Source: Cetorhinus maximus (taxonomy: Eukaryota). From it: DNA of 64,000 nt. Numbering within the stretch: the stretch's first letter is position 1; every line of letters begins with the position of its first letter. The position numbers were made by a program, and so were the translations under genes. The stretch spans positions 33,976,001-34,040,000 of the forward strand of contig NC_135890.1 in assembly GCF_964194155.1 (NCBI RefSeq), in the 5' to 3' direction. This document shows positions 21,741 to 58,870 of the stretch, one piece after another. Under the pieces are notes generated by a model that worked only from the letters and a program-made list of their open reading frames with translations, did no database searches and was not told where the DNA came from.

Positions 21741-21905
21741 ATGGCTGAGAGGAGCCGGCATGTGCAGAGCGAAATGTTGCTCCTAGTGCTTCTGGTTCTG
21801 CTCGCTTCCCTTCACCTCCTGACCTGTCCCTTCACTAAAGTGGAGGAAAGTTTTAACCTGCAAGCGGCGCATGACCTGCTGTACCACCGCCAACACCTGG
21901 ACAAG
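21741..21905 (+). CDS. ALG12: ALG12 (Dol-P-Man alpha-1,6-mannosyltransferase) coding exon 1
   Basis: aacATGG start; MAERSRH...[31 protein letters not shown]; donor aag|gtacag; 165 nt. Confidence 0.95.
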
Positions 21906-22002
21906 GTACAGCACCAGCTCCTGAATGCCTGCAACTTGTACACCAGCTCCTGTGGCTGCATTTCTGTTTCTTTTGCTTACTAGAGCTCTTTATTTCCCGC
22001 AG

Positions 22003-22135
22003 TACGATCATCACGAGTTTCCTGGTGTTGTGCCAAGGACCTTCGTCGGGCCACTTTTTCTTTCATTGCTCGCTGCACCAGCAGCTTCCATCCTTTCAGC
22101 TCTAGACGTCTCCAAGTTTTACTCGCAGCTTCTAG
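22003..22135 (+). CDS. ALG12: ALG12 coding exon 2
   Basis: cgcag|...|gtaggt, 133 nt; [17 protein letters not shown] signature. Confidence 0.96.
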
Positions 22136-22609
22136 GTAGGTCAGACAAATTTTAAGTTAAATTTCACTGCAGTTGACTTCGAAGCGGAGAGAAATCGTGG
22201 GTATGATCGAAGGATTTTTTTTTTAAAGCTGCATTTAATATTTTTTGCATAAAACGTGACAAGAAATAGTTTAATTACATCGTTTTATATATGCTGTATG
22301 ACATATAGCCTCTACTTTTACTACAACTGAGAATATGTACTGTATTTCTTTAGATGACCTGTTATAATAGTGTTCACTAGTGTTTCCACTGTGTCGTGAA
22401 CAGTATGAGACCTACTGAAGTAGGCAGCCTCACTCCAATTTGACTGACATTAGTAAAACTAATGCTGTGTTAATCCTGCTGTTTGTATTGATATATCTGA
22501 AATCTCCCTGCATCCTCTGCTTTTGCCTCAATGAAAATAGTCTTAATAGTTGATCCAGTTTATTATTAAAATATATGAATTATTATAGTAAATGAACATC
22601 TTGTCAATA

Positions 22610-22755
22610 AATAAAAACAAAAAAATTAATTGAAAAACTCAGCAGGTCTGACAGCATCTGTGGAGACAGAAACAGAGTTAACAACCTGCTGAATTTTTCC
22701 AGCATTTTTTGTTTTTATTTTAGATTTCCAGCATCCACAGTATTTTGCTTTTATC
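22610..22755. repeat. Penelope-like terminal-repeat remnant in inverted arrangement; related copies at ~40750-40925 and ~62690-62880
   Basis: aaatgctggaaa..ctcagcaggtctggcagcat.tgtggagagagaaac..gttaac motif and its reverse complement. Confidence 0.55.
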
Positions 22756-24149
22756 TTGTCAAATCCTTCTAATCTATTTCTAAATAGAAATGATTCCTAA
22801 TTATTATTGGTTCAGCTCATAGCATGGCTTTCATGGCCCGATTCTGGTTGTGACCCAACAAAACCTTTAATACTGGCACATTCACGCAGAGTAGTACATT
22901 GCAGTGTGCTGGCTCTGTCAGTATGATTAATGCTCGTTTTGGACCGAAGCTTTGAGCTCTTGTTAGGACCAGACATTCTGTTTTCAGGAATCAACTAGAT
23001 GTTAAGATGGGGATGATACGTGAAATATTCTAGTTTTACAAAGGCTACAATCGATAAACAAAATATATTGGAATATGTCTTGTTTGGCTTCACTTCAGTC
23101 CTTTGTAATTGAATAACCAAACAAATCACAGCACTCATGTGCACTGTTTTAAAATCTGTTGTATCAGTGAAAAGGTTCGTGACTTCCTTATCTGGAAGCG
23201 GATACACCATTGAGTCAAAATTAAATCTTCTCTCCCATCAATCTACTGTTGTCTTTGCTTGCAATGGGTTGGTTTTGACATCCAGATTGTTCTTTCTGTG
23301 ACACAATCATTAGTTATTCCTAGTCTCTGTCTTCTGTTTATCTGATTCATTTATTTATACATTTATTCCATATTTCTTGTACCAAATATTATGGAATTGG
23401 CTGATCAGTACTGCATTAGTCTGTTCTTTAAAGTCACAGCAATCAAGGGGTTAAAACACTCCTTCCCAAAAATAGATCCTGTTGCTGTCAGCTGAAGTGC
23501 ATCTTTTAGATGAGACATTAAAACTGCTCTCTTGGGTGACATAAAAGTCTTATTTCAAAGAAGAGTAATAGAGTAACCCCTGGTGCCCTGGCCATATTTA
23601 TCCTTCAATCAACATCACTGAAGCAGATTAAGTGGTCATTTTCATATTTGTGGGAGCTTACTGTGCACAAATTGGCTATCACATTTCCTACATTTGAAAC
23701 ACTTAAAAAGTACTTCATTGGTTCTAAAGTGCCTGTGTTCATGAAGATGTTATATAAATGCAAGCATTTCTTTCTTCCTTAATCACTGTCTTTCAGCCTC
23801 TCTGACACTGATAAATAACTGTTAAAAGGGATCACATTCTTTCATTCCTTTAATTGTTGTCAGAATTTTTTTTAAAATACATTGTCAATTTAGTTTTTAC
23901 TACTTTTTCTCTCTCTCTTACTCAAATCCCTCTTTTTTTCTCTCTACCTTATTTGACATGGAATTCAACTGCTCTAATTTACACTTCCTTCTTAGCCATT
24001 TTGCCATTAATTTAACAATCCTTCAATCTGGTTAAGGAGATGCACAGTTGTTTTCCTTGTTCACTCAGGTCCCAGATGCCCTATTTCCCTCAATGCAACA
24101 TTATCAACTTATATTTTCAACAACTCGCCATGTGAGAAACCTTAAAACA

Positions 24150-24620
24150 TACAAGCATACAAATTAGGAGCAGCAGTAGGCTATTCAGCTCCTCATTCAA
24201 CAAGACCATGGCTGATCTGATTGTGGCTTCAACTCCACAACCAGCCTACTCTGATAACCTCGACTCCCTTGTTGTGAATCCATCTACCTCTGCCTTAAAA
24301 ATGTTCGTTGACCCTGCCTCTACGCTCTCTGGGGAAGAGAGTTCCAAACATTTACGACCCTCTGAGAGAAAAAATTTCTTCTCATCGCTGTCTTAAATGG
24401 TAGATGGTAGACCCCTATTTTTAATATGTCCCCGAGTTCTAGTCTCTCCCACAAGGGGAAACGTGCTTTCAGCATCAACCCTGTCAAGTCCCCTCAGAAT
24501 CTTATATGTTTCAATAAGATCACCTCGCAATCTTCTAAACTCTAATGGATACAGGCCTAGCCTGTTCAACCTTTCCTTGAAAGATAACCCCTGTCCCCGT
24601 CCCCAGTATCAGTCCAGAGA
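24150..24620 (-). mobile_element. CR1 LINE 3' fragment
   Basis: Reverse complement of the CR1 end (taggagcag.agtagg, aataagatcacctc). Confidence 0.7.
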
Positions 24621-24946
24621 AACTTCTGAATACACAAACCTAAATACACAAAGATAATTGAATAATAGCAGACTCGTTAGATACCCTGCCACAGCAAATT
24701 ATGGCCCATGATCTCCCATCAAATAACATATAACTGGTACCAGAGAATAGAAGGTGCAAAAGTTGTTACAATTTCTGGTTAACGCGTGCTTCCAGTTGGT
24801 AAACTGTATGTAACCGGACTATGTAAAAAGTGCTCATTTTATTTAGATCTTTTAGTTTCCTAAATCTGCCAGAAATGACGTATGTATGATTCGGATAGGG
24901 GAAAGAAGTAGGATAATCTCCCCCCTTTTTACACCTCTCGGCTGAC

Positions 24947-25951
24947 TGCAATAATGTGTATTTTTGAGAAAGAGTGTTTTAACCCCTCGATTGCTATGAC
25001 TTTAAAAAACAGACACAAAACATGCTGCCTTCTAAGTTTAAATCAAAGGAAAAGAGTAAATGTTTATTTCTCATAACACCCGAAATGTAATTGCAACAAA
25101 CACTCACTCCTGACACATACAGAATACACCACACACACAAGAAAAGATGATTTCTTAAAATGGAACATACACTTAAACTACTTAAAGGGTAAAAGAATCA
25201 GGTCACTTCTTTAAACAGTTCTTAAGATGGTGGTTGAAACATTGCAGGCCTGAATGATTCTCTCTTGGTTCACTGGAGACAAAGGAGGTTGAAGGTTTCT
25301 GGCTTTTTCAGATGAAATTGTGCCAAGCTCCTGTAGTAACAATTTATAATCCTGTAGGTAAAACAAATTAGCCCCACTTCACTGCCTGAGATGACATTCT
25401 TTTCGAAGCACAGTCCAATCTGTTGCTGGGTGAGAGAAGGTTTCCCTCTGGACTTTGTATCCCAGCCTGACCCACTGGGCTGCACTTGTGGATTAATAAC
25501 ATAATGGCTATATCCAGCCCGTTTCAGTCATGTGACAACAGCATTGCTGTATTTCATTGACCACACAATGGGTTGATGGCAGATCTAATTGACACACAAT
25601 GGAGAATGAATGATATCCCATCAACATTCCAGCCATGAGTAGCCTCCCAAATGCCTTTATTTGAAACCCCATCTTCATGGGGCCAGCAACTCTAATAACT
25701 GTTGTTACTTTTACTCTTCAATTGAAATGGAGTGGGCAGTCATCAACACATGGGAAAGCCATTTACATTTAATGGCTTTCCAGAGACATGTCCATACATG
25801 AAGTTAGTTCCTGTCTGTATAGAAACCACCAAAGAAGTCACCTGACCCTTCTGGAGTACACCCTATCAAGGTACAGTGCCCATATTCCATACTGCTATTT
25901 GAAAGTAAAGTGTCCATCTTCCAATAAGGTTCACGGGCATATGATATAACT
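24947..25951 (-). mobile_element. Probable solo LTR (~1 kb)
   Basis: TG start; imperfect end (taact); flanks ctgac/gtgac (4/5 match); minus-strand AATAAA. Confidence 0.4.
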
Positions 25952-26012
25952 GTGACGCCTATTAATGAAAAAATATTTAATTGTATTCAGCTTCCTCTGT
26001 ATTTTTTAACAG

Positions 26013-26186
26013 TTCGAGGATGCCTGGGTCTGTGTGTGATTTATGCACTGTGGAAACTTCAGAAAGAAGTTAGGAAGCAATTTGGCTCAACAGTAGCTTC
26101 TTTTTACTGTTGGATCTCAGCAACCCAGTTTCATCTTCTCTTTTATTGCTCAAGAACTCTCCCAAATATATTTGCATTTCCTATTG
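26013..26186 (+). CDS. ALG12: ALG12 coding exon 3
   Basis: aacag|...|gtgagt, 174 nt; VRGCLGL...[19 protein letters not shown]. Confidence 0.96.
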
Positions 26187-27204
26187 GTGAGTGCAGCGTT
26201 GCAATTCCTTTTAGTTTATTCTTTGGCGGAAATGGGGTCTATTGTAAACTGGTTTGCCACTGCAATAAATTTGGAAATATATGAACTGTATTTCATATTT
26301 ATAATGGATCCTATAAAGTCCAGGAGATAACATGAATTCCGAAATATGCATGTATATATTTGTATTTAACAGTAAGCTGTTTATAATATATTTATTAACA
26401 ATCTCTTTAAATGCCGTGAAACAATAGTGATGGAAATACATTTATGTTGTGCCATTCATGAATCACAATGAAATTGTAGAATGTATGAAGTATTTTCTAT
26501 CAGCTCAAATCTTCTTGCTGAAACCTTACTAGAAGTGTGGAGGTAAGGGGGCATGAGGTGATACTGGATGCTCATCATGGAGCAGAGTCCATCTTTGGTC
26601 CACACTCTGATACAGTATCACCTGAACTTAGATGTTTAATTAAAAATAAACATGTTTAAAAGACTGAAAATCAATGTATTATAGAAAAGAAATAGCATGC
26701 ATTTATATAGTACCTTTCACAACCTCAGGACTTCCCAAAGCACTTCATAGACAATTAAGTACTTTTGAAGTGTAGTAACTGGGAGAACTTCTTTGAATTG
26801 AGTCATTGGATCTTTTATGTCCATGAGCAAGCAAACAGGGCCTTGGCTTAATGTCTCATCTAAAAGTCAAAACTTCCCACAGCACAGAACTTCCTCAGAA
26901 CTGCACCTAAGTGTCGGCCTAGATTATACACACAACTGCTAGAATGGGGCACGAATCTTCTAACACAGTTAAGTGCTACTAGTGAGCTGTGACTGACTAC
27001 TGAAGGTAGTGACTGAAATATATAGTACATATGATAATGGAACTGTGCTGGACTAAATTAAAATTTGAAATTGTTCTGAAGGATTAAATATTCACCTACA
27101 AACATCTTACTTCCAGAGAAGGTTTTCTATACAAACATTTCTAGAGGCACATAGTCTTTAAGGGCACATTAATTTGAAAAATGTCTATTTTATCTATGTT
27201 GCAG

Positions 27205-27399
27205 TTATCATGGCGTTTACTGCCTGGATGCAACGGAACCATGGCACATTTATCTGGCTTTCTGCTTTATCTATCATTGTGTTCCGATCCGAGCTTTGCA
27301 TATTCCTGGGCCTCATGCTGCTGCTATCATTAGTGAACTATCGTATTTCTATTTTCAAAAGTCTGTGCCATGCAGTGCCAGCTGGATTGGTGTGGTTGG
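27205..27399 (+). CDS. ALG12: ALG12 coding exon 4
   Basis: tgcag|...|gtaagt, 195 nt; [21 protein letters not shown]. Confidence 0.95.
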
Positions 27400-27502
27400 G
27401 TAAGTAATTTACTATTTGTTCTTTGACAAGGACTTGAATTTAAAGACTTGTCCATACTACCAAATAAACACATTGAGTAACATCTGATGTGTTTCATTTC
27501 AG

Positions 27503-27606
27503 GTCTAACTGTGTGTGTGGATTCTATATTTTGGCGACGCACCCTATGGCCTGAGGGAGAAGTACTTTGGTACAACACAATCTTGAACAAGAGCTCCAAA
27601 TGGGGA
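27503..27606 (+). CDS. ALG12: ALG12 coding exon 5 (followed by a U12-type intron)
   Basis: ttcag| [35 protein letters not shown], 104 nt; followed by CTATCCTTT. Confidence 0.92.
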
Positions 27607-28608
27607 CTATCCTTTACACGGTCTTCAAATCACTGTAAAAGAACTCAATACCATCTGAAAAGTTAAAATTTTTATTTTAATTGTGATTGATTTCACTGGG
27701 AATATATAATTTAAAAACTTACAGTCCCGCTACATGTTAGGCTAAATATGAGATATGCTGATTGCCTTATTTCCATACAATCAGTGATTATCACAATTAA
27801 CTTCAAACATTACAATTAATCACCTATTAGTGTGGGAGTCATCACACATTGATGGGAGGAACAAAGGGTGTAGTTGGCAGTTGCCAGCGAGAGGAAAAAA
27901 AATCAGCATGGATGAGAGTTATACCAAGTTATACCTGGTACCTTAGTGATTATGTTATTGGACTAATGATCCCCAGGCATGAGTTCAAATCCCATCATGG
28001 TAGCTGGGGAACATAAAATTCACTTAATTAAAGAGGGAATGGTGACCATGAAACTATCAGATTGTCATGAAATCCTCTATGATTTATTAGTGTCCTTTAG
28101 TGAAGCCTTGCTTACTGTTCTATTCAGAAATCCAGGCAATGAAGGATAAAACTGGAGTCTAATCTTGAGAAACTTTTATTTACAGCAATATATATTACAA
28201 ACGTATACTTTCTAACCCCCATCCCTACAGTTTCAGTCTGCTCCTATATTTAGGAGCGCAAGTGAATCCATAGTTAGTGCCCACCACCTGAATGCAATTA
28301 AATACTCAAATACTATACAATTAACATATATCTAAACTGGCCTTGAAATGAATCCAAACCCATAACAATGTGGTTGTCTTTTACTTGCCCTTTGAAATAC
28401 CCTAGCAAGCCACACAGTTGTATCAAATTGCTATGAAAAGGTAAAAATCGGATGACTACTCGGCATCACAGCGTTGTGGGTGTACCTAAACCGCTCCGAC
28501 TGCAGTGGTTCCAAAAGATGGCTCACCACTGCCTCCTCAGGGGCAGTTAAGGTTGCCAGCAACATCCACATCCCATGAACAGATAAAGAAAAACTGCAGG
28601 TTGTAAAC

Positions 28609-28936
28609 TGTGGTAATCTAATGTGTAATATACCTTTAAGAAGAATGTTTATAATAGATCACATGATCTTATCCAATGACAGAGTAGCGCAGGCTACCTC
28701 AGTCAGTAGGGAGTAGTCTAGAGTAAGAGACTGTATTGTAGAGACAGGGTTTTAATTGTAAGTACACAAGTGTAGCTGCTGAGTTCTTTTGTAAATAAAT
28801 AGAATGTGTTCTACATAAGAACTGCTGATCTGCTATGTCTATGATACCAACTCAGTCATGCTGAGACAAGTATGACTGAGTTGGTACCATAAACAACCCA
28901 GATCCATTAGCTAAACTAGTGACCAAGGATCCAACA
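28609..28936 (+). mobile_element. Solo LTR, 328 bp
   Basis: TG...CA termini, perfect 5-bp TSD TAAAC (28604-28608 / 28937-28941), internal AATAAA at ~28794. Confidence 0.8.
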
Positions 28937-29534
28937 TAAACTATGAGAGCTTGTGTGATACCATCTCAACCATTATCAGATTCAAGAGAAAAACATTATC
29001 AGGCTCTTGCTTCTAATATGATTTTAAGGTTCATCAGTAATTTTAAAGCTATGTGGGAGAAGTCACTTTCTATCACTTTACACTAGCATTTCACTAAAAT
29101 TAATGAAGGCAGGAATTTCATCCCCATTGTAACTAGATGTTTGTGTAGTTTTGTCATATGATTCTTTTATAACTCTAAATTTTCTAATTGCATGCATCTG
29201 GCATAGTGTCTACTTTTGGAAGCATATTTTAGTAATTGAGTGTTTGGAGTCCATGATTATTCATCAAATAAAATTAGTAGACAGAAAATTTTGAACTACA
29301 AATGGAGCATTCCTGATATACATTTCTGGCAGTTGAGTTTCTGTGATAAGAAAGCATAATTGTAAATGTTATCCCTAAAAAAATATCATTGTGGCATTGT
29401 GATTTGTTGAGGGAGGTGTGAATTATTCAACAAAACATCCTGCTTCGCCATACCAATTTGCTTTGAGAAACAGATTGCTGTATCAAAAAAAAAGCTTCAT
29501 TGTAATGGTGATGCAAGTAGAACTAGTTGATACC

Positions 29535-29860
29535 ATGAGTTAAGCACACTGTTCCTTCACCTCTAGGGTATGGGTTCAAATCCAGTGCAGACTAATGTTA
29601 CAAAAGTCTCTGTTACCTTCTGGCTATAAGAATCTTTGAAATCATTCTCATTGTTAATTGGCATGGAATCCACAACATAAGCTATCCATGATTTGTCACT
29701 CACTAGCAATCTGACTCCAAGGAACCATAAATACGCCTGGTCTGGGAAATGTCGCACTGCCTACTACCTCCTGTGGCTGGGGGAAGAAAGCGTTTTTGGA
29801 ACAGAGACAAGGGTGCTTTTCTCTGCATCTAATCCACACTGTGCCTGACCTGGGATCATT
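29535..29860 (+). mobile_element. Ancient tRNA-derived SINE resembling LF-SINE
   Basis: ccttcacctctagggtatgggttcaaatccag head and gggaa..gcactgcc 3' motif resemble the LF-SINE consensus as recalled. Confidence 0.45.
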
Positions 29861-30068
29861 GGAAGTTGTCTTTCGAAGGAAATTTGAGGGCGAATTCAGT
29901 TCTATGGGCTTGACAATCTCTCAATATCCTTGACTAATTTCAATTGATTTCCATTAGATAGGCTGCAGTGTTACTTGCTGGTTCCTTAAATGTATATATT
30001 TTTTGAGTTTAATGACTTAAGCAACAGGTTACAATTTTTTATGTTTCCTTGACTGAGAATCTATTTAG

Positions 30069-30292
30069 ACATCGCCCTTCTTCTGGTATTTTTACTCGGT
30101 GCTGCCTCGTGCTCTTGGTTGCAGTTTAATTTTTCTGCCTCTTGGGGCTAGGGACCGGCGGAGTTGGAGGTTACTCTTCCCAACACTTGGTTTCATCTTT
30201 TTATATTCATTCTTACCTCACAAGGAGTTGCGCTTCATAATCTACACTTTTCCTGTCTTGAATGTTGTTGCAGCAATAGGATGCTCATCCAT
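30069..30292 (+). CDS. ALG12: ALG12 coding exon 6
   Basis: 224 nt; [17 protein letters not shown]...[18 protein letters not shown]; donor at|gtaagt. Confidence 0.95.
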
Positions 30293-30859
30293 GTAAGTAC
30301 TCAATGGCGTTGAACTTAAAGAGTCAAGAGTTTAGTTTGACTACTTTTTGTAATGTGAGTGCTTATATAGGTGATTTTAGAGTTTTATTGTAGAGCAAAA
30401 TTACTGTTGCATTACTAGGACTGTTTTATTCGGAGTGTTAAGCCCACATTGGCACCCGCTGTCTGACTGTACAACACTGATAAGTATGTACAAATTTGTT
30501 TCTCCAATAATTCCCCTCCAAGTTTTCCCAACCAAAACAGTAGATGTGTGTCCATTTAATTCAATGCAGAAAGGACAGTGAGTTGGACAGAGAAAGTAAT
30601 TGCAAAGACCTCATTTGGGAATATGCAATGTATTATTTATAGCCTGATTGTATTATTTACATTCTAATTCAGCATTAGTTTCAGGATGGCAAAGTAGTCT
30701 GATTTTTTTTCTTTATATTATAAAAAAGGAACAAGAGACAAATTTTCTGAATTCCATTCTTTGTAAAAACCTGCTCCTAGCAGAATAAAATAACTGCCTG
30801 CATTGTGCTTGTGATGAATTGAGATCCTACCCAGTATCTATTATTGTACAAGGACGTAA

Positions 30860-31935
30860 GTAAAAACATGAAATTAGAGGCAAACGTGAGATATGGGTGA
30901 TTAATTAGATGGAAGGTATGGGATAAAGCTTCCATTCTCTGGTTGGTGGGATGTGATCAGTGGTGTTCACAAGGATCTGTACTAGGGCCTCAGCTTTTCA
31001 CCCTGTGTACCAATGGCTAGGATGAAGCAATAGAAAATATAGTAAGTTTAGCTCTAAATTTGCAGATTACACTAAATTAGGAGACGCTATGTTGCATAGG
31101 GTGGAGCAGCAATTTAGAAAGACAGATGAACTAAGTGAGTGAGTAAAACTGTGGCAGATAGAGTTCAATGTGGGGAAGCAAAAGATCATTCAATTTGGAT
31201 CTGAGGCAAACAAACAGAATATTTTATTAATGGTGAAAAATTTGGGGCTATGGAGAAGCAAAGGAATTTAGATGTCCATGCACACAAATCAGTAAAAGGT
31301 AGTGCACAGGTACAAAATCCATCAAAATGGCTAAAAGAATGCTGACCTTTATCTTGTGGTGGGTGAATAGTGAAGAGGTGATACTTCAGCTATGCAGAGA
31401 CTTGGTCAGACTTCATCTGAGATCCTGCATTGAGTTTTGGTCACCAAACCTTAGGAAATATATACTGGTCTTTGAAGGTACAGCGCAGATTCAATAGAAT
31501 TATACCAGCGCCAAACATTAAATTGTGTATTGGTTACATAACCTTGACTTTTATTTCTGTAAGTATAGAAGGTTGATGGGTGATCTAATCAAGGTGTTCG
31601 AAATGATAAAGAGATTCAATAAGATAGATCTGGTGGAACAATTTTTACCGGTAGGGGATTCCAGAACCAAATAGTATTATCTTAAAATTAGAGCTGAGCC
31701 ATTTAGGACTGAAATCAGTGAAACTTTTTCACACAAAGGATAGAAAAAATCTGGAACTTGGTCTCCCAAAAGGCTGTGGGTTCTGGGTTAGTTGAAATTT
31801 TCAGGACTGAAATAGATAGAGTTCTGCTAAGATTATCAAAGGATATGGAACAAAGACAGGTGAGGGGAGTTTGAGATCAATCATGATTAAACAGGTTTGA
31901 GGATTTGAATAGCCTACTATGCCTGTGTTCCTAAA
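30860..31935 (+). mobile_element. Degenerate CR1 LINE fragment
   Basis: tggtgttc.caaggatctgtactagggcc, aaatttgcagat.acactaaa (FADDTK-like), CR1 3' end. Confidence 0.8.
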
Positions 31936-31990
31936 TAAAATGCCTGGTAAAATCACATCATTAATTATTTGTATTTTTTCTGTTCCACAG

Positions 31991-32160
31991 AATGATCAAT
32001 TACCACAAATCCTTTCTGTATAAGTTAGGATCCTTAGTTGTGATTACACATTTACTGACAAATGCCTGCTACACTGGGATGCTACTGTATGTATCCCACC
32101 ACAACTACGCTGGTGGAGTCGCTATGCAAAAGCTACATGAGACTGTGTCTCCAACAACAG
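31991..32160 (+). CDS. ALG12: ALG12 coding exon 7
   Basis: cacag|...|gtctgt, 170 nt; NYHKSFLYK...[15 protein letters not shown]. Confidence 0.93.
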
Positions 32161-34733
32161 GTCTGTTACCTAGCTATGATAACACATCTTGACAAGTAAA
32201 CCAGCTTGCGAAACCCATTGTACAAATGCAGGATGTGTAAAGTGACTGGGGAAGATCCCTACAATTGCTTACTCATGTTTAAATTTTCAGTACATGCCCA
32301 GGTGACCATGGCATATGAGCATGTGGTGTCCACAAGTTCACTACCTATTTTCCAGGATCAGCAGACACTGCAGGATATTTAATTTTACAGTTGTGTTGTG
32401 TAAAAATAAGTCCATGGGTGATGACTTTTAGTTAGGATAGGTTGTCCGTCTACAATAGCAGTGTCTTCCTTTTAGGGAGTGCATGACTTGGCAACCTTTG
32501 CAAACTAAGAGAAAGGTATACCATAATATAAGTTTGATTGTGGTAAGATTGATATTACAACATTAATGTACATTTACAGAAATTGTGCTCTTTACACTCC
32601 TGTCCACGTTCTTTGTTCTTACACCTGAGCTTTGAATGTCAAAGTAATTCATAGTCAGTCAAAGGTGAAATTATACAATTCAAGTCTTACCTTCAAAAAA
32701 TCTTGAGGCAGAACTACACAGGTAGTAATGTTTAATCATTAGAAAAGAAAGAATTGTTAGGTTTTAATAGTGCATTTAAGTTAGAAATAAAATTAAATGT
32801 TAAAACAAAAGGAAATGGAGGGAAAATAATGAGGGGGTAAACTGAAGAAGGGGCTAATTTCATTTTTATTGGTGTTTTTATTTTAGTTGTTTTGGTAATA
32901 TTACAATAATATTACATTGCTGGAGAACTCGGGTTTGTTCTAGTGTCACGATTCACAAAAAATAAAAACAGGCCAGCACAGTAAGCTTTCAATTCCTTGG
33001 AACTGCTGGCAATCTAAGGGCTATGTATTATGTCAGAACGGTCATTGACAAACATTCGGTATTACCTATTCATAAACCAACTATTTGCATGCTGTCACCA
33101 AGAATTAGAGCATGGCAGCGTAGGCAAAACAAGCGCTGGATGACATTTACATGCATACTTGCACTTCCATTGTTTTCTGTAGGAGGACAAGCAACAATAT
33201 AAGCTGTCACTTCAATTATATCAACAAAGAAATTGAAGAGCACCAGCCCACAAATACAATGAATACATAATCAAACTGCAATAAATTCCTGTTATTGGAA
33301 AGCTCATCCACTGAGATAGAGTTCCAAGAATTTGGACAGATGATACATCTGTTACACAACATCTGAGTGTTTTCTTTATTGTTTTGGCTAATCAACTTCT
33401 AACAAGCTCACTGGAGTGAAACACTGAGCAGAATCTTAAGAATTTAAAGGCAGTGATTTTCTGGAATGAGCCATTATATCACTTGGAATCTGTCACAACT
33501 TCATATAGTTACATTAATTAATTTTAGCTTTGGATTCTTTTGTATGTGATTTTAGCTATGAAATAATTTTTTGGTTATTATAGCTAAAAAAGCATGGCAT
33601 TATTTTTATTTTTCACATTTTCCTGATCATTGGGAACCATTGATGGATGCTAATGCCTTGTTGGCATGATTTGCACATTAGTTAGTACGCAAGCTGATTT
33701 TCCTTGGTCATTCAAAGGTTTCTAGGTGAGGGGTTAGGCAAGTGATCTGTTGTTGTTGTTGTTGTTGTGCTGGCACCATTATGAGGCTGGCCAGTAGGAG
33801 GTGTGCAAGAGTAAACGTGATTTTCCTTTGTCTCTTTATTTTACATTCCTACTCCTCTCTGGCTGAGAGTGAGATCAGATACTTCTTGTGGCAGGTCATT
33901 TACATTCTCAGTAATATAATGACTGAGTTGCAGGTTTAACTATCAAGGTCTGAGGAAATATCTTTATCGGAAACATTTCTACAACAATTGAATGCATATA
34001 GGAAGGTCCTTTTGATCTACATCAATTGCAGCCACCTTTATGATTTATATTGTTGTGGCTGTTAATTTTATCAGTCACATAACTGAAGTTTCATAATTCA
34101 ATGTTCAATCATAACATGCTGATGGTTTAGTGAAGACTTTTACACGCAGTTATGCAGATGGTCTCCAGGCTTCTGCAGTTTTAGAAAGACACCTGCATAC
34201 ATTTCCCATTCACTGTTTCATAGTTGACTGTTCACCGTGTCCACATGGATCATTGTTTCCGCATATCACCACTATCATCTTCACATCAGACAGGGCACCC
34301 CATTGGTTCCTTGGTAAGTCTCACCCAGTCAGCAAGTCTTCATATGAAGCTTCAGTGATCTAGCCTGCATGTCATGCCTTGCATGTCAGTATATACAACA
34401 TTTATTTGAACTCCCAGTTTTTAATGCTTAGTATTGCATACTTAATACAACATGATCATTCTACCTATCCTTACAGTTAATTACCCTTCACATCTTAATA
34501 TTTCCTTTAGTCTTAAATTATTTTGTCTCTTGCAACATATTTATTATGACTTGGTGACTTATATTGTTTTTAAAACACAGTTTGTTCTATTTCCTCTACA
34601 TTATGATTTGATGAAATGATCACATATTGGAAGCAGAGTGTTGCTTAATAACAATTCTTACAAAATATTCACTTGAAAATAGTTTAAGAGAGAATATTTC
34701 CTGTATCATTCCCACCTTAATCTTTCCCTCCAG

Positions 34734-34809
34734 CTGTTTCAGTGCACATTGATGTTGCTTCTGCACAGACTGGTGTTACTCGATTCCTTGAACTCAATCC
34801 AAGTTGGAG
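34734..34809 (+). CDS. ALG12: ALG12 coding exon 8
   Basis: tccag|...|gtaagt, 76 nt; [24 protein letters not shown]. Confidence 0.94.
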
Positions 34810-36253
34810 GTAAGTTATTTCCTAATGGATACGCTTTTGGTATTAACTGGAATTTTTAATGAAACAAATGCATATCCTTACTTGAAATAATGTCTTTATA
34901 GTGCATTAATTACCTCCCCCCATCCTTTTGTTCTCTAGTTCCCCTCCATTTCTTTTCATTTGTATTCTATTTTGTCTGTTTTTCTTTACCTTTAATGAAA
35001 CAGCTCAAACCAATTATCGAACAAATGTCTAATGTAACTGCCCATATCATAATCAGTAAATATTTGTGTGTGATGTTGCAAATGAAAATTTTATACAATT
35101 CTTTTCAATAGAAAATTGAAGGTCCAAATCCTGGGTGGCAGCGAAGATACATTCAGCATCAGTGCATCAATGTCCCTAATTTTCATGCTTTGTGGGGTGG
35201 GGGTGGGAGAGAGAGATTACATAAGAATAGGAGTGGGAGATTCAGCCCCTCAAGCCTGTTCCACCATTCAGTTCAATCATGCCTGATTTGTATCTTGACT
35301 CCATCTATCTGCCTTGTTTCTGCAACCCTTATTCTCAGTTTTGAAACTTTCAGTTGACAGAGCCTCAACTTTTTCTGGGGTAGTTCCAGATTTCTACTGC
35401 CCTTTGTGTGGAGAAGTTGTATTCTGACACCACCCTGAATGGCCTAGCTCAAATAAGGTAGATACAGAGGAATAATTTCTACTGGTGGTGGGATCCAGAA
35501 CAAAATGGTATAATTTTAAAATTAGAGCTAGGCAATTGAGGAGTGAAATCAGGAAACACTTTTTCCACACAAAGGGTTCAATGACCCAGCCTCCTCTGCT
35601 TTCTGTGGAACAGAAAGCCACAGACTAACGGCCCTCAGAGAAAAAGTTTCTCCTCATCTCCATCTTAAAAGGGAGACCACTTATCCCTAAACTGCGTCCC
35701 CTGGTTCTCGTCTTTCCAATGGGTGATGGATCAATATTGAAAAAAGTGAATGGATAATGGGACTGTGAGCCGGCACAAGTAGAGGGGGGTTCAAATAGGC
35801 TGCTCCTCTGCTTTAAGATTCAGTGGGCCATTTTTGTTACGGGCAGACAACAGCTAGTTGTGAATTGGCTGCCTATTATTCACTCCATCCAATTTTTGAA
35901 GACAACAGAAAGAGAAAATTGGGTGAAGCGTACAATGCGTGGCTGATCCATAACTGCCAGTGCTGGAGGTGAAGATTATCCCCTGTGATTCTGAATTGGA
36001 ATGGTAAATGATATGGTACTCATTTTTTTTACTATTAACAGTACCTCTGAATAATTAACAGAACAGAATCCATGATGTTTGTGAATATTGTCTTTGCTGG
36101 GAAGAAAAAAAAATGGCTTATGACTAGAAGTCTTTAAAATCAACATCTTGATCTGGACTTAAGAAAATTCAAAAAGCCTGGCTTAGATGTGTTTACTAGT
36201 ATTTCAGTATGAAAAGGTTGTCAGTTTGGTTTTTTTTTCCTTTTGATATACAG

Positions 36254-36500
36254 GTATGACAAGAGGGAAGATCTTAAACCAGATGTTGGAAGTACTGCAC
36301 ATACACACTACCTGATGGAAATGAATCCAGTATATATATTGCAGTATAGAAACACCCATAGGATAATGTTTAATATTTCTGGTTTTAGTGGAATTGGGTT
36401 TAACATATCTCAACTCCCTCCATTTTATATTAAAACTGAGACAAAATTAGTAGTATTAGAAAAAATATACACACACAATGAAAATATGAGAAAAGGATAA
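36254..36500 (+). CDS. ALG12: ALG12 last coding exon
   Basis: tacag| (R)YDKREDL...KLVVLEK...NMRKG*. The nine exons sum to 1488 nt (495 aa + stop) in frame. AATAAA at 36798-36803 is a candidate poly(A) signal. Confidence 0.93.
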
Positions 36501-56100: not shown

Positions 56101-56930
56101 AAGTTTTTGGCACCTTTTTGTAAAAAGGACATTAAAGCCATAGCAAGTGTACATCATAGACTGAACCAGGATGATACCAGGGATTGGAAGCTACCGTAAC
56201 ACCAGAAGATATTCATAGCAGGAAGGCTAGAAGGAGGCTTACTGGTAATGAGAAATCTTTAAGATTATGAAAAGTTTTGGGAAAAATCTTTGGTTGGGAA
56301 CAAGGGGTAGGTCATCAATTCAGAATCGTTACCAAAAGAATAAAGGGTGAGGGTGGAAAAAATTAACTTAAGATTGTTGGAGCTTGAAATGCTTTACCAT
56401 AGGAGTAGTTGACACAGTTATTACATATTTTATGGGATAGTTGGCTATATATTTGAAAGGGGCATGGGCAGAGCATAAAGCAGTGGGATTAGTTTTGGGT
56501 TGTTTTCGTAATGAGAAATAATTGAAGTGGGGACCATTATGGAAAGGCGTAGCTGGATTCATCATATAAGAATTAGGAACAAGAGGAGGTCATTCAGCCC
56601 ATCGAGCCTATTCTGCCATTCAATGGATCATGGCTGATCTGATTATGGTGTTAACTACTTTTTTTGCACCCCCCCCCCCCTCCCAATAATCCTTGATGCC
56701 CTTGTAGATCAAAAATAGTCATGAAAGAAAGAACTACCCGGGATGTATTTAATAGTGGGACCACAGGAATTCTCAAGTGGAGCTGACCCACTGCATCTTA
56801 TTTGGCTTGTTTATTACTTGATCCATTCTAACTTCTGGGTAGCCTTTGTAATGTTTTGTAACTTTTAATATGTCATTAGCTGTTCTTGACTTCTTGATCA
56901 ATGATTTTTCAGCGAACTTCCTTATCAATG

Positions 56931-58297
56931 ATGAGAAGGAAAGGAAGGTGCCACCGAGGGACAGCAAGGCGTCCAGCTTCACCTTGCAGCCTGAAACATT
57001 CACCAAGCCGTGAAATGCTAACATATGCTCAAGCACAACGAATGGTTGAAATGGAAATTGATGGCCGGCTACACAGGATCAGTATTTATGATCCTTTGGA
57101 GATCATTTCAGAAGATGACTTAACTGCCCAAGAAATTGTTGAATGTAACAGCAACAAGGAAAATAGTGAACGTCCTCTTGTTTTCGTAAAGACTAAAAGG
57201 TACAAATCTAATAAAGTGAAAAAGAAGGATGCCACTATTCAGAGTACACATGGAGCTCCAACACAGGTGAATGCATTGCCAGAACCCAGATTCAGAATCG
57301 TAGATTATGAACCACCATCAGCTCCTCGTCGGCCTTCATCTTATTACAGACTCATCGAGAAATCCCCAGAGGAGCTCAATAATGAAGTTGAGTACGATAT
57401 GGATGAAGAAGATTATGCATGGCTGGAAATGATTAATGAAAGGCGCAAAAGTGATGGTTTGAGTGCAGTTTCACAGAATGTGTTTGAGTTCCTTATGGAT
57501 AAACTAGAGAAGGAATCTTACTTTGAAAATTCTAATCAAGGTGATCCGCAGTCATTAATTGATGAAGATGCTGTTTGTTGTATTTGCATGGATGGAGAAT
57601 GTCAAAACAGTAATGTAATATTGTTTTGCGACATGTGTAACTTAGCAGTACATCAGGAATGCTATGGGGTTCCTTATATACCCGAAGGACAATGGTTGTG
57701 CCGTCGTTGTTTGCAATCCCCTTCTCGACCTGTTGATTGTATCTTGTGCCCAAATAAGGGTGGTGCTTTCAAGAAGACAGATGATGGTCAGTGGGGTCAT
57801 GTTGTTTGTGCACTGTGGGTTCCTGAAGTTGGATTTGCTAACACTGTATTCATAGAGCCTATTGATGGTGTCAAGAACATTCCAGCAGCCAGGTGGAAAT
57901 TGACATGCTACCTCTGCAAACAGAAAGGGCTTGGTGCTTGCATCCAGTGCCAAAAGGCAAATTGCTATACAGCATTCCATGTAACTTGTGCTCAACAAGC
58001 AGGTCTGTACATGAAAATGGAGCCTGTTAAAGAGACTGCATCCAATGGAACAACAACATTCAATGTGAAAAAGACTGCTTTCTGTGCTGTGCACACTCCT
58101 CCTGGGTGCGTGAGAAGGCCGCTTCACATTTACGAGCCACCTGAAGTGAAAAATGGCATATGTAGAAGAGATTCACCTAACAAGACAACTAAAACAAAAT
58201 GTAAAGCAAGGCAGAAGACAAAGAAGGCCAGGAAACTCTTAGTTGAAAAATGTACTGCTGTGCCTGTAGTATCAGTCCCATGCATTCAGCCTGACAG
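56931..58297 (+). CDS. BRD1: BRD1 (BRPF2) first coding exon: EPC-N region and PZP (PHD-Zn knuckle-PHD) domain; gene continues beyond the window
   Basis: Acceptor ttttcag| before 56913; (M)[10 protein letters not shown]...[14 protein letters not shown]...[53 protein letters not shown]; donor ag|gtgagt. The [11 protein letters not shown]-terminus and synteny indicate BRD1 rather than BRPF1/3. Confidence 0.97.
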
Positions 58298-58870
58298 GTG
58301 AGTGTTTTCACAAACTTCAATACCTGTTTTTCATTTTGAGGTTTTGTGATGAAATCTGCAGCCTATTAAATAAATCTAATGAAAAGTAAAAAGACAATGT
58401 GCTATTTATCTAAAAATTATTCTTCTATGTCCTTGTGTTTGTTTTGTGTTGTAGAGCCTCTTAAGCCAAACAAATTGGGAAATCTGAAATCACTTTCAAT
58501 CCTTGTTTGCTCAGCCAATTGACGAACTCTAATATAATTTCTGAACCAATCACACTCTATTAAAAGAGAATCTGTGATATACAACCAGTCATACAATATA
58601 TAAACTTTATGGCCAATTCAATAATGTTTTCTGATTTTAAATTGCTCTATGTCCCATTTAAATCTTGCCTGCCCCCATCACACAAAGTCAACAGTCTTGA
58701 ATTTTACACACCCTCCACCTGCAGTTGGCACCACACCCATTCACTGTCCTGAACTCACCCCAACTAACACTTGATTATATGAAGAGTGTGGGTAACTCAA
58801 AGGCACCTGAACTACAGTGATTTCATTCTTGTTTCTGTATGCTGCTAGCCAAGGCTGCTTCTCATTTTCA

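Follow-up and report, generated by a model that had tools for sequence, protein, structure and literature searches.

A probable CT-AG U12-type intron in the ALG12 gene of Cetorhinus maximus

Results

The ALG12 locus

We analysed a 64,000-nucleotide stretch of the Cetorhinus maximus genome (hereafter the window). The window contains the coding region of ALG12 on the plus strand:

21741..36500 (+): ALG12 coding span, nine exons; with a shifted intron 5 cut the exon structure reproduces the RefSeq protein
21906-22002, 22136-26012, 26187-27204, 27400-27502, 27607-30068, 30293-31990, 32161-34733, 34810-36253 (+): ALG12 introns

All seven introns other than intron 5 have GT-AG ends. Exon 6 matches PF03901 (E 1.3e-14), and shark ALG12 proteins match this exon at up to 97%. 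Elsewhere in the window, a 467-aa open frame at 56898-58301 (+) contains EPL1, PHD and zf-HC5HC2H domains and resembles the first coding exon of BRD1/BRPF2; in human, BRD1 lies near ALG12. ALG12 is on record as a minor-intron gene (PMC10853781; 10.1101/2020.07.18.209528).

U12-type signals of intron 5

Exon 5 ends with ...AAA TGG GGA (27598-27606), and the elements around intron 5 are arranged as follows:

27503..27606 (+): exon 5, ending TGG GGA (Trp-Gly), phase 0
27607..27615 (+): U12-type donor CTATCCTTT, following the consensus from +2 to +9 but with C at +1
27607..30068 (+): ALG12 intron 5, CT-AG, 2462 nt; contigs of relatives place the joint unambiguously at 27606^30069
30045..30053 (+): U12 branch site TTCCTTGAC, in which 30052 is the likely branch A; CTCCTTAAC in the human ortholog
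30067..30070 (+): acceptor AG (30067-30068) followed directly by AC (30069-30070); the AC permits a shifted AT-AC reading
30069..30292 (+): exon 6, beginning ACA TCG CCC (Thr-Ser-Pro)

From +2 to +9 the donor agrees with the RTATCCTTT consensus (TATCCTTT at 27608-27615). At +1 (27607) the assembly has C, not the purine of the usual GT and AT subtypes, and a purine at this position is not a defining property of U12-type introns (PMC3584512). A branch site of the TTCCTTRAC type lies near the acceptor and is followed by GAGAATCTATTTAG in place of a long pyrimidine tract; branch A 30052 lies 16 nt from the end of the AG, and the intron ends in TTTAG at 30068. The orthologous human intron, recognised by its matching exon flanks, is likewise U12-type. 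The preliminary description had placed the exon end, the start of CTATCCTTT, TTCCTTGAC 16 nt before the AG and the exon restart ACA TCG CCC exactly where we read them, and its assignment of the intron to the U12 type and to ALG12 is borne out by the motifs, the human U12 ortholog and the PF03901 match of exon 6.

Only 5 of the 128,000 strand positions (both strands of the 64-kb window) carry TATCCTTT, so chance does not account for its presence at +2 where orthology fixes the junction. The donor stretch 27504-27640 is single-copy and matches the 3.99 Gb genome once.

Intron 5 has further features of its own. At 29924-29957, 145 nt before the intron end, it contains ATATCCTTGAC, a perfect U12 donor core that overlaps the branch-like TCCTTGAC, with an AG ~24 nt further on. 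About one TATCCTY site in every three stretches of 2.4 kb is expected by chance, and contigs of four runs from relatives contained no joint at ATATCCTTGAC. A 36-nt inverted repeat (28827-28904; 83% complementary, 6-nt loop) lies in a stretch matched by many unrelated contigs and is probably part of a repeat element. Two GGTTCAAATCC-like boxes (27976-27992 and 29567-29583) resemble what we take to be the B box of tRNA-derived SINEs.

Minor-spliceosome RNAs and control donors

The genome contains at least 41 U11 and at least 14 U6atac matches over the Rfam cut-off, on many contigs; most of these matches are probably dispersed pseudogenes. The 5' pairing region reads AAAAGGG in the best three U11 matches and AAGGA in the best three U6atac matches. 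AAAAGGG is complementary to donor positions +4 to +9 and AAGGA to +4 to +8, which we take to be the pairing registers of the two RNAs, so that both host snRNAs are able to pair with the site.

As a control for general relaxation at +1, we sampled other U12-like donors in the same genome. A first sample of 56 loci, drawn from PF00999 (26 of 26 matches) and PF06602 (30 of 64 matches), was uninformative, as none of its exon ends carried a donor that was clearly of the U12 type. The 27 loci of PF03155 and PF04511 yielded six U12-like donors, five GT and one AT; this small sample does not suggest that +1 is relaxed throughout the genome. Candidates that lay inside matched exons or lacked TCCTT were dropped, as were occurrences of CTATCCTT that formed part of a branch site (L066/L078), lay more than 1 kb past the matched exon (L067/L077) or lay 128 nt before the matched exon with no branch site after it (L068). 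The first sample also included two sodium/hydrogen exchanger genes in tandem, whose exon sets run parallel (G000:C3:188048421-188260478; L012, L013, L017, L018, L020-L022, L024, L028, L033).

The junction used in relatives

The junction 27606^30069, proposed in the preliminary description, is the one used in contigs of relatives. In 4 of 4 junction runs, 27606 is joined to 30069 exactly and with no ambiguity, and the product reads WGTSP, with Thr and not Leu. These runs (4 of 24 listed) are presumed to be RNA and come from four studies and two related organisms, B (X15) and C (X17, X18 and X19); the label 'CT..AG' attached to them reflects the letters of the window, not the relatives' own intron bases. 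X17, X18 and X19 each have one contig that extends 105 letters or more in both directions from the joint, and X15 has 30 on the short side.

Enumeration of the in-frame cuts within ~50 nt gave one further cut that adds no stop and preserves the flanking residues:

27609..30070 (+): rival AT-AC junction, two bases downstream; gives WGLSP and reproduces XP_078409472.1

The remaining in-frame cuts delete or add conserved residues. The earlier statement that no GT, GC or AT donor gives the WG-TSP frame thus needs qualification: the AT..AC cut keeps the frame, as WGLSP, and the statement holds in that the conserved Thr is lost. A cryptic GT at 27562 also keeps the frame; it deletes 15 conserved residues, is absent from the relatives' joints and was rejected.

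With the 27609-30070 cut, the window is identical to the Cetorhinus maximus RefSeq protein XP_078409472.1 at 495 of 495 residues. It follows that the public annotation uses the AT-AC cut, and also that XP_078409472.1 is not independent evidence for base 27607. The donor that follows the AT of this cut, ATCCTTTAC, fits neither the U12 nor the U2 consensus and is two bases out of register with the U12 consensus and with U11/U6atac pairing.

A real C might weaken or redirect splicing, with sizeable retention or use of CT-AC ending at 30070, and so limit ALG12 output. This is compatible with correct CT-AG splicing at 27606^30069, and we consider an effect of large size unlikely. By translation, retention of intron 5 leads to a stop after 19 codons, and CT-AC use of 30069-30070 causes a frameshift with a stop after 26 codons. 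In favour of such an effect, CT-AC (24) outnumbers CT-AG (2) in nature (PMC10639083), and introns with non-canonical ends are often less well spliced (PMC3584512). Against it, the exact in-frame joint is the only one listed in 4 of 4 relatives' runs, in contigs that drop rare forms. Moreover, the human GT-AG intron is itself retained in controls at 8% in one study (PMC4667643) and 11-22% in others, a range of 8-22%, and retention by itself would thus not point to the C; retention of the human intron is higher in RNU4ATAC and ZRSR2 mutants. We set aside as retention evidence the intron-covering contigs of X15, which carry no levels, come from a run that may hold DNA and cover largely repeats. 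No piece among those listed extended as far as the donor. A wrong-strand artefact, a concern for CT-AC introns, is ruled out for the CT-AG intron here, which is flanked by plus-strand exons.

The residue after Trp-Gly across species

A two-base slide of the junction writes the first two intron bases into the codon after WG, and annotated proteins can be examined for its trace. Thr follows WG in 109 of the 115 homologs that have the motif (120 listed). Among cartilaginous fish, 37 of 41 rows have Thr and four have Leu (Cetorhinus, Heptranchias, Mustelus and Narcine). The three Leu models besides that of Cetorhinus are XP_067861019.1, XP_078091672.1 and XP_069764323.1. Among the other rows, 237 of 244 have the motif, with 230 Thr, 5 Ile, 2 Val and no Leu (a few rows being assumed to be non-shark). 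The comparison of 3/22 with 0/237 for Leu gives a Fisher p of 5e-4, which is indicative only, as the rows include isoforms and kin.

In a tree of 25 proteins built with the residue column masked, one isoform per species and the Logan rows left out, the four Leu models are separate tips among Thr rows. Thr is annotated in 19 of the 23 cartilaginous-fish rows of the tree; Carcharodon, which is sister to the Cetorhinus tip, is one of them. A Thr annotation fits a GT or AT intron and a CT intron annotated correctly, from transcripts, alike. A Thr-to-Leu change needs two substitutions, so the simpler and likely reading of the Heptranchias, Mustelus and Narcine protein models is that their introns, too, have C or T at +1. 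Short read-through proteins gave 23 matches (VSF 11, VSL 3, ISF 2, TSP 3, VK 1, TMP 1, no motif 2); none of the 23 read WGLSF and none was assignable to elasmobranchs, so they speak neither for nor against this reading.

These models bear on the possibility that the C reflects a misassembly or a rare allele and that the true intron is an ordinary GT-AG (or AT-AG) U12 intron, which we regard as improbable. Base 27607 is known from the assembly only, the Cetorhinus RefSeq model probably derives from the same or a conspecific assembly, the six other U12-like donors sampled in the genome all begin with G or A, and natural CT-AG ends are rare, at about 3 per 100,000 conserved minor introns (PMC10639083). 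Against an error, Leu is the residue expected from C or T at +1, and the Heptranchias, Mustelus and Narcine models have it whereas 0 of 237 other rows do; moreover, the rest of ALG12 agrees with the RefSeq protein without frameshift or mismatch. The Leu models are thus indirect evidence that other elasmobranchs have a pyrimidine at +1 and argue against an assembly error, and the C at 27607 is probably a real base. Of the preliminary claim of a functional CT-AG U12 intron, the type and the relatives' junction are upheld, and the C at +1 is probably genuine on the strength of the protein comparison.

That the true intron is AT-AC (27609-30070), the protein really having Leu258 as in RefSeq and the other Leu models being real substitutions or slides, is very improbable: this cut has canonical ends and an AC end 18 nt from branch A, but the relatives' contigs run to 27606 and resume at 30069, its donor is out of pairing register, and Thr, which 230 of 237 other rows have at this site, would have had to change to Leu on four separate occasions, by two bases each time.

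The first base in other vertebrates

Four sturgeon and paddlefish GenBank ALG12 models (P0049, P0287, P0296 and P0297) read WGISF...QETSP, and the RefSeq models of these fish have Thr. The GenBank models imply an intron with an ATATCCTTY start and an AG or AA end, which would be non-canonical. A skink ALG12 model reads WGVSF. Two gecko models (P0044 and P0051) read WGVSP and WGISP; their Val and Ile may be real substitutions, or possibly result from introns that begin with GT and AT and were likewise slid by two bases. Judged by these protein models, +1 of the ALG12 minor intron seems unusually free.

A broader history is conceivable, and we offer it tentatively. A pyrimidine, probably C, may have stood at +1 since before the shark-ray split, with G, A or C working across vertebrates against a fixed AG-type end. 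The intron would then be a long-kept exception to the rule that pairs first and last bases, hidden in databases by the two-base slide.

Discussion

We conclude that ALG12 27607-30068 is probably a genuine CT-AG intron of the U12 type, which the minor spliceosome likely excises at 27606^30069 so that the protein reads WGTSP. Its C is probably real and fixed, and at least some other elasmobranchs likely also have a pyrimidine at +1.

The first three intron bases are unpaired with U11 and are read by U11-48K (PMC3584512; PMC7367187). A preprint on U11 structure describes a cross-link to U+2 (10.1101/2023.12.22.573053), and according to PMC11874965 it is not known how the minor B complex reads +1. 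We suggest that the position of the cut is set by the U11/U6atac pairing register together with the branch-to-AG distance, and that +1 would be read only by protein, U11-48K. A C at +1 would be tolerated because pairing register and branch distance place the cut, possibly at a cost in efficiency. In some elasmobranchs, annotation may then slide the junction by two bases to a false AT-AC, writing Leu for Thr.

If correct, this reading puts a gene name to a natural CT-AG minor intron: ALG12 is a conserved housekeeping gene, and orthologs of the intron have G and apparently A at +1. The ALG12 orthologs would form an allelic series for the reading of the first base and for the choice between AG and the adjacent AC. 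The annotation error is recognisable (a two-base slide to AT-AC that turns Thr into Leu, Val or Ile) and can be mined for hidden non-canonical minor introns; published counts of such termini may therefore be too low.

In the literature searched, which mostly lay outside subscription papers and intron databases, we found no report on the ALG12 minor intron in sharks. The CT-AG class has already been counted in print, and no named case was found in that literature. The protein models hint at sharing across sharks and rays, masked by annotation, which would be new relative to the same literature.

Comparison with known systems

The human ALG12 U12 intron (GT-AG; chr22:49907945-49909243) is the nearest comparison. 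It is given in a 'U12 G-type' sheet, with TGGGGG followed by GTATCCTTC and CCTTAAC...CAG followed by ACCTCC (PMC8280824). The human and shark introns are alike in the WG|TSP boundary, the TATCCTT donor core, the CCTTRAC branch site and the AG followed by AC. They differ in that the human intron has G at +1 and 1299 nt, whereas the shark intron has C and 2462 nt.

Among conserved animal minor introns, CT-AG ends number 2, TT-AG 10, CT-AC 24 and AT-AG 658 of 73,671 (Table S1 of PMC10639083; the total is our own sum). The CT-AG and TT-AG entries belong to the same terminal class as shark ALG12, and the table lists them without gene or species names. The implied sturgeon and paddlefish ALG12 intron would resemble that of the shark in having non-canonical ends, but would have A at +1.

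In Trappc9 of mouse and rat, a U12 intron with CT-AC ends (PMC2831892) likewise has a natural C at +1 that is common to related species, with canonical orthologs. In a mutational study, as recounted in PMC2831892, CU-AC introns were spliced correctly at lower efficiency. The Trappc9 intron ends in AC, whereas shark ALG12 ends in AG and its source appears to be of the GT-AG or AT-AG type.
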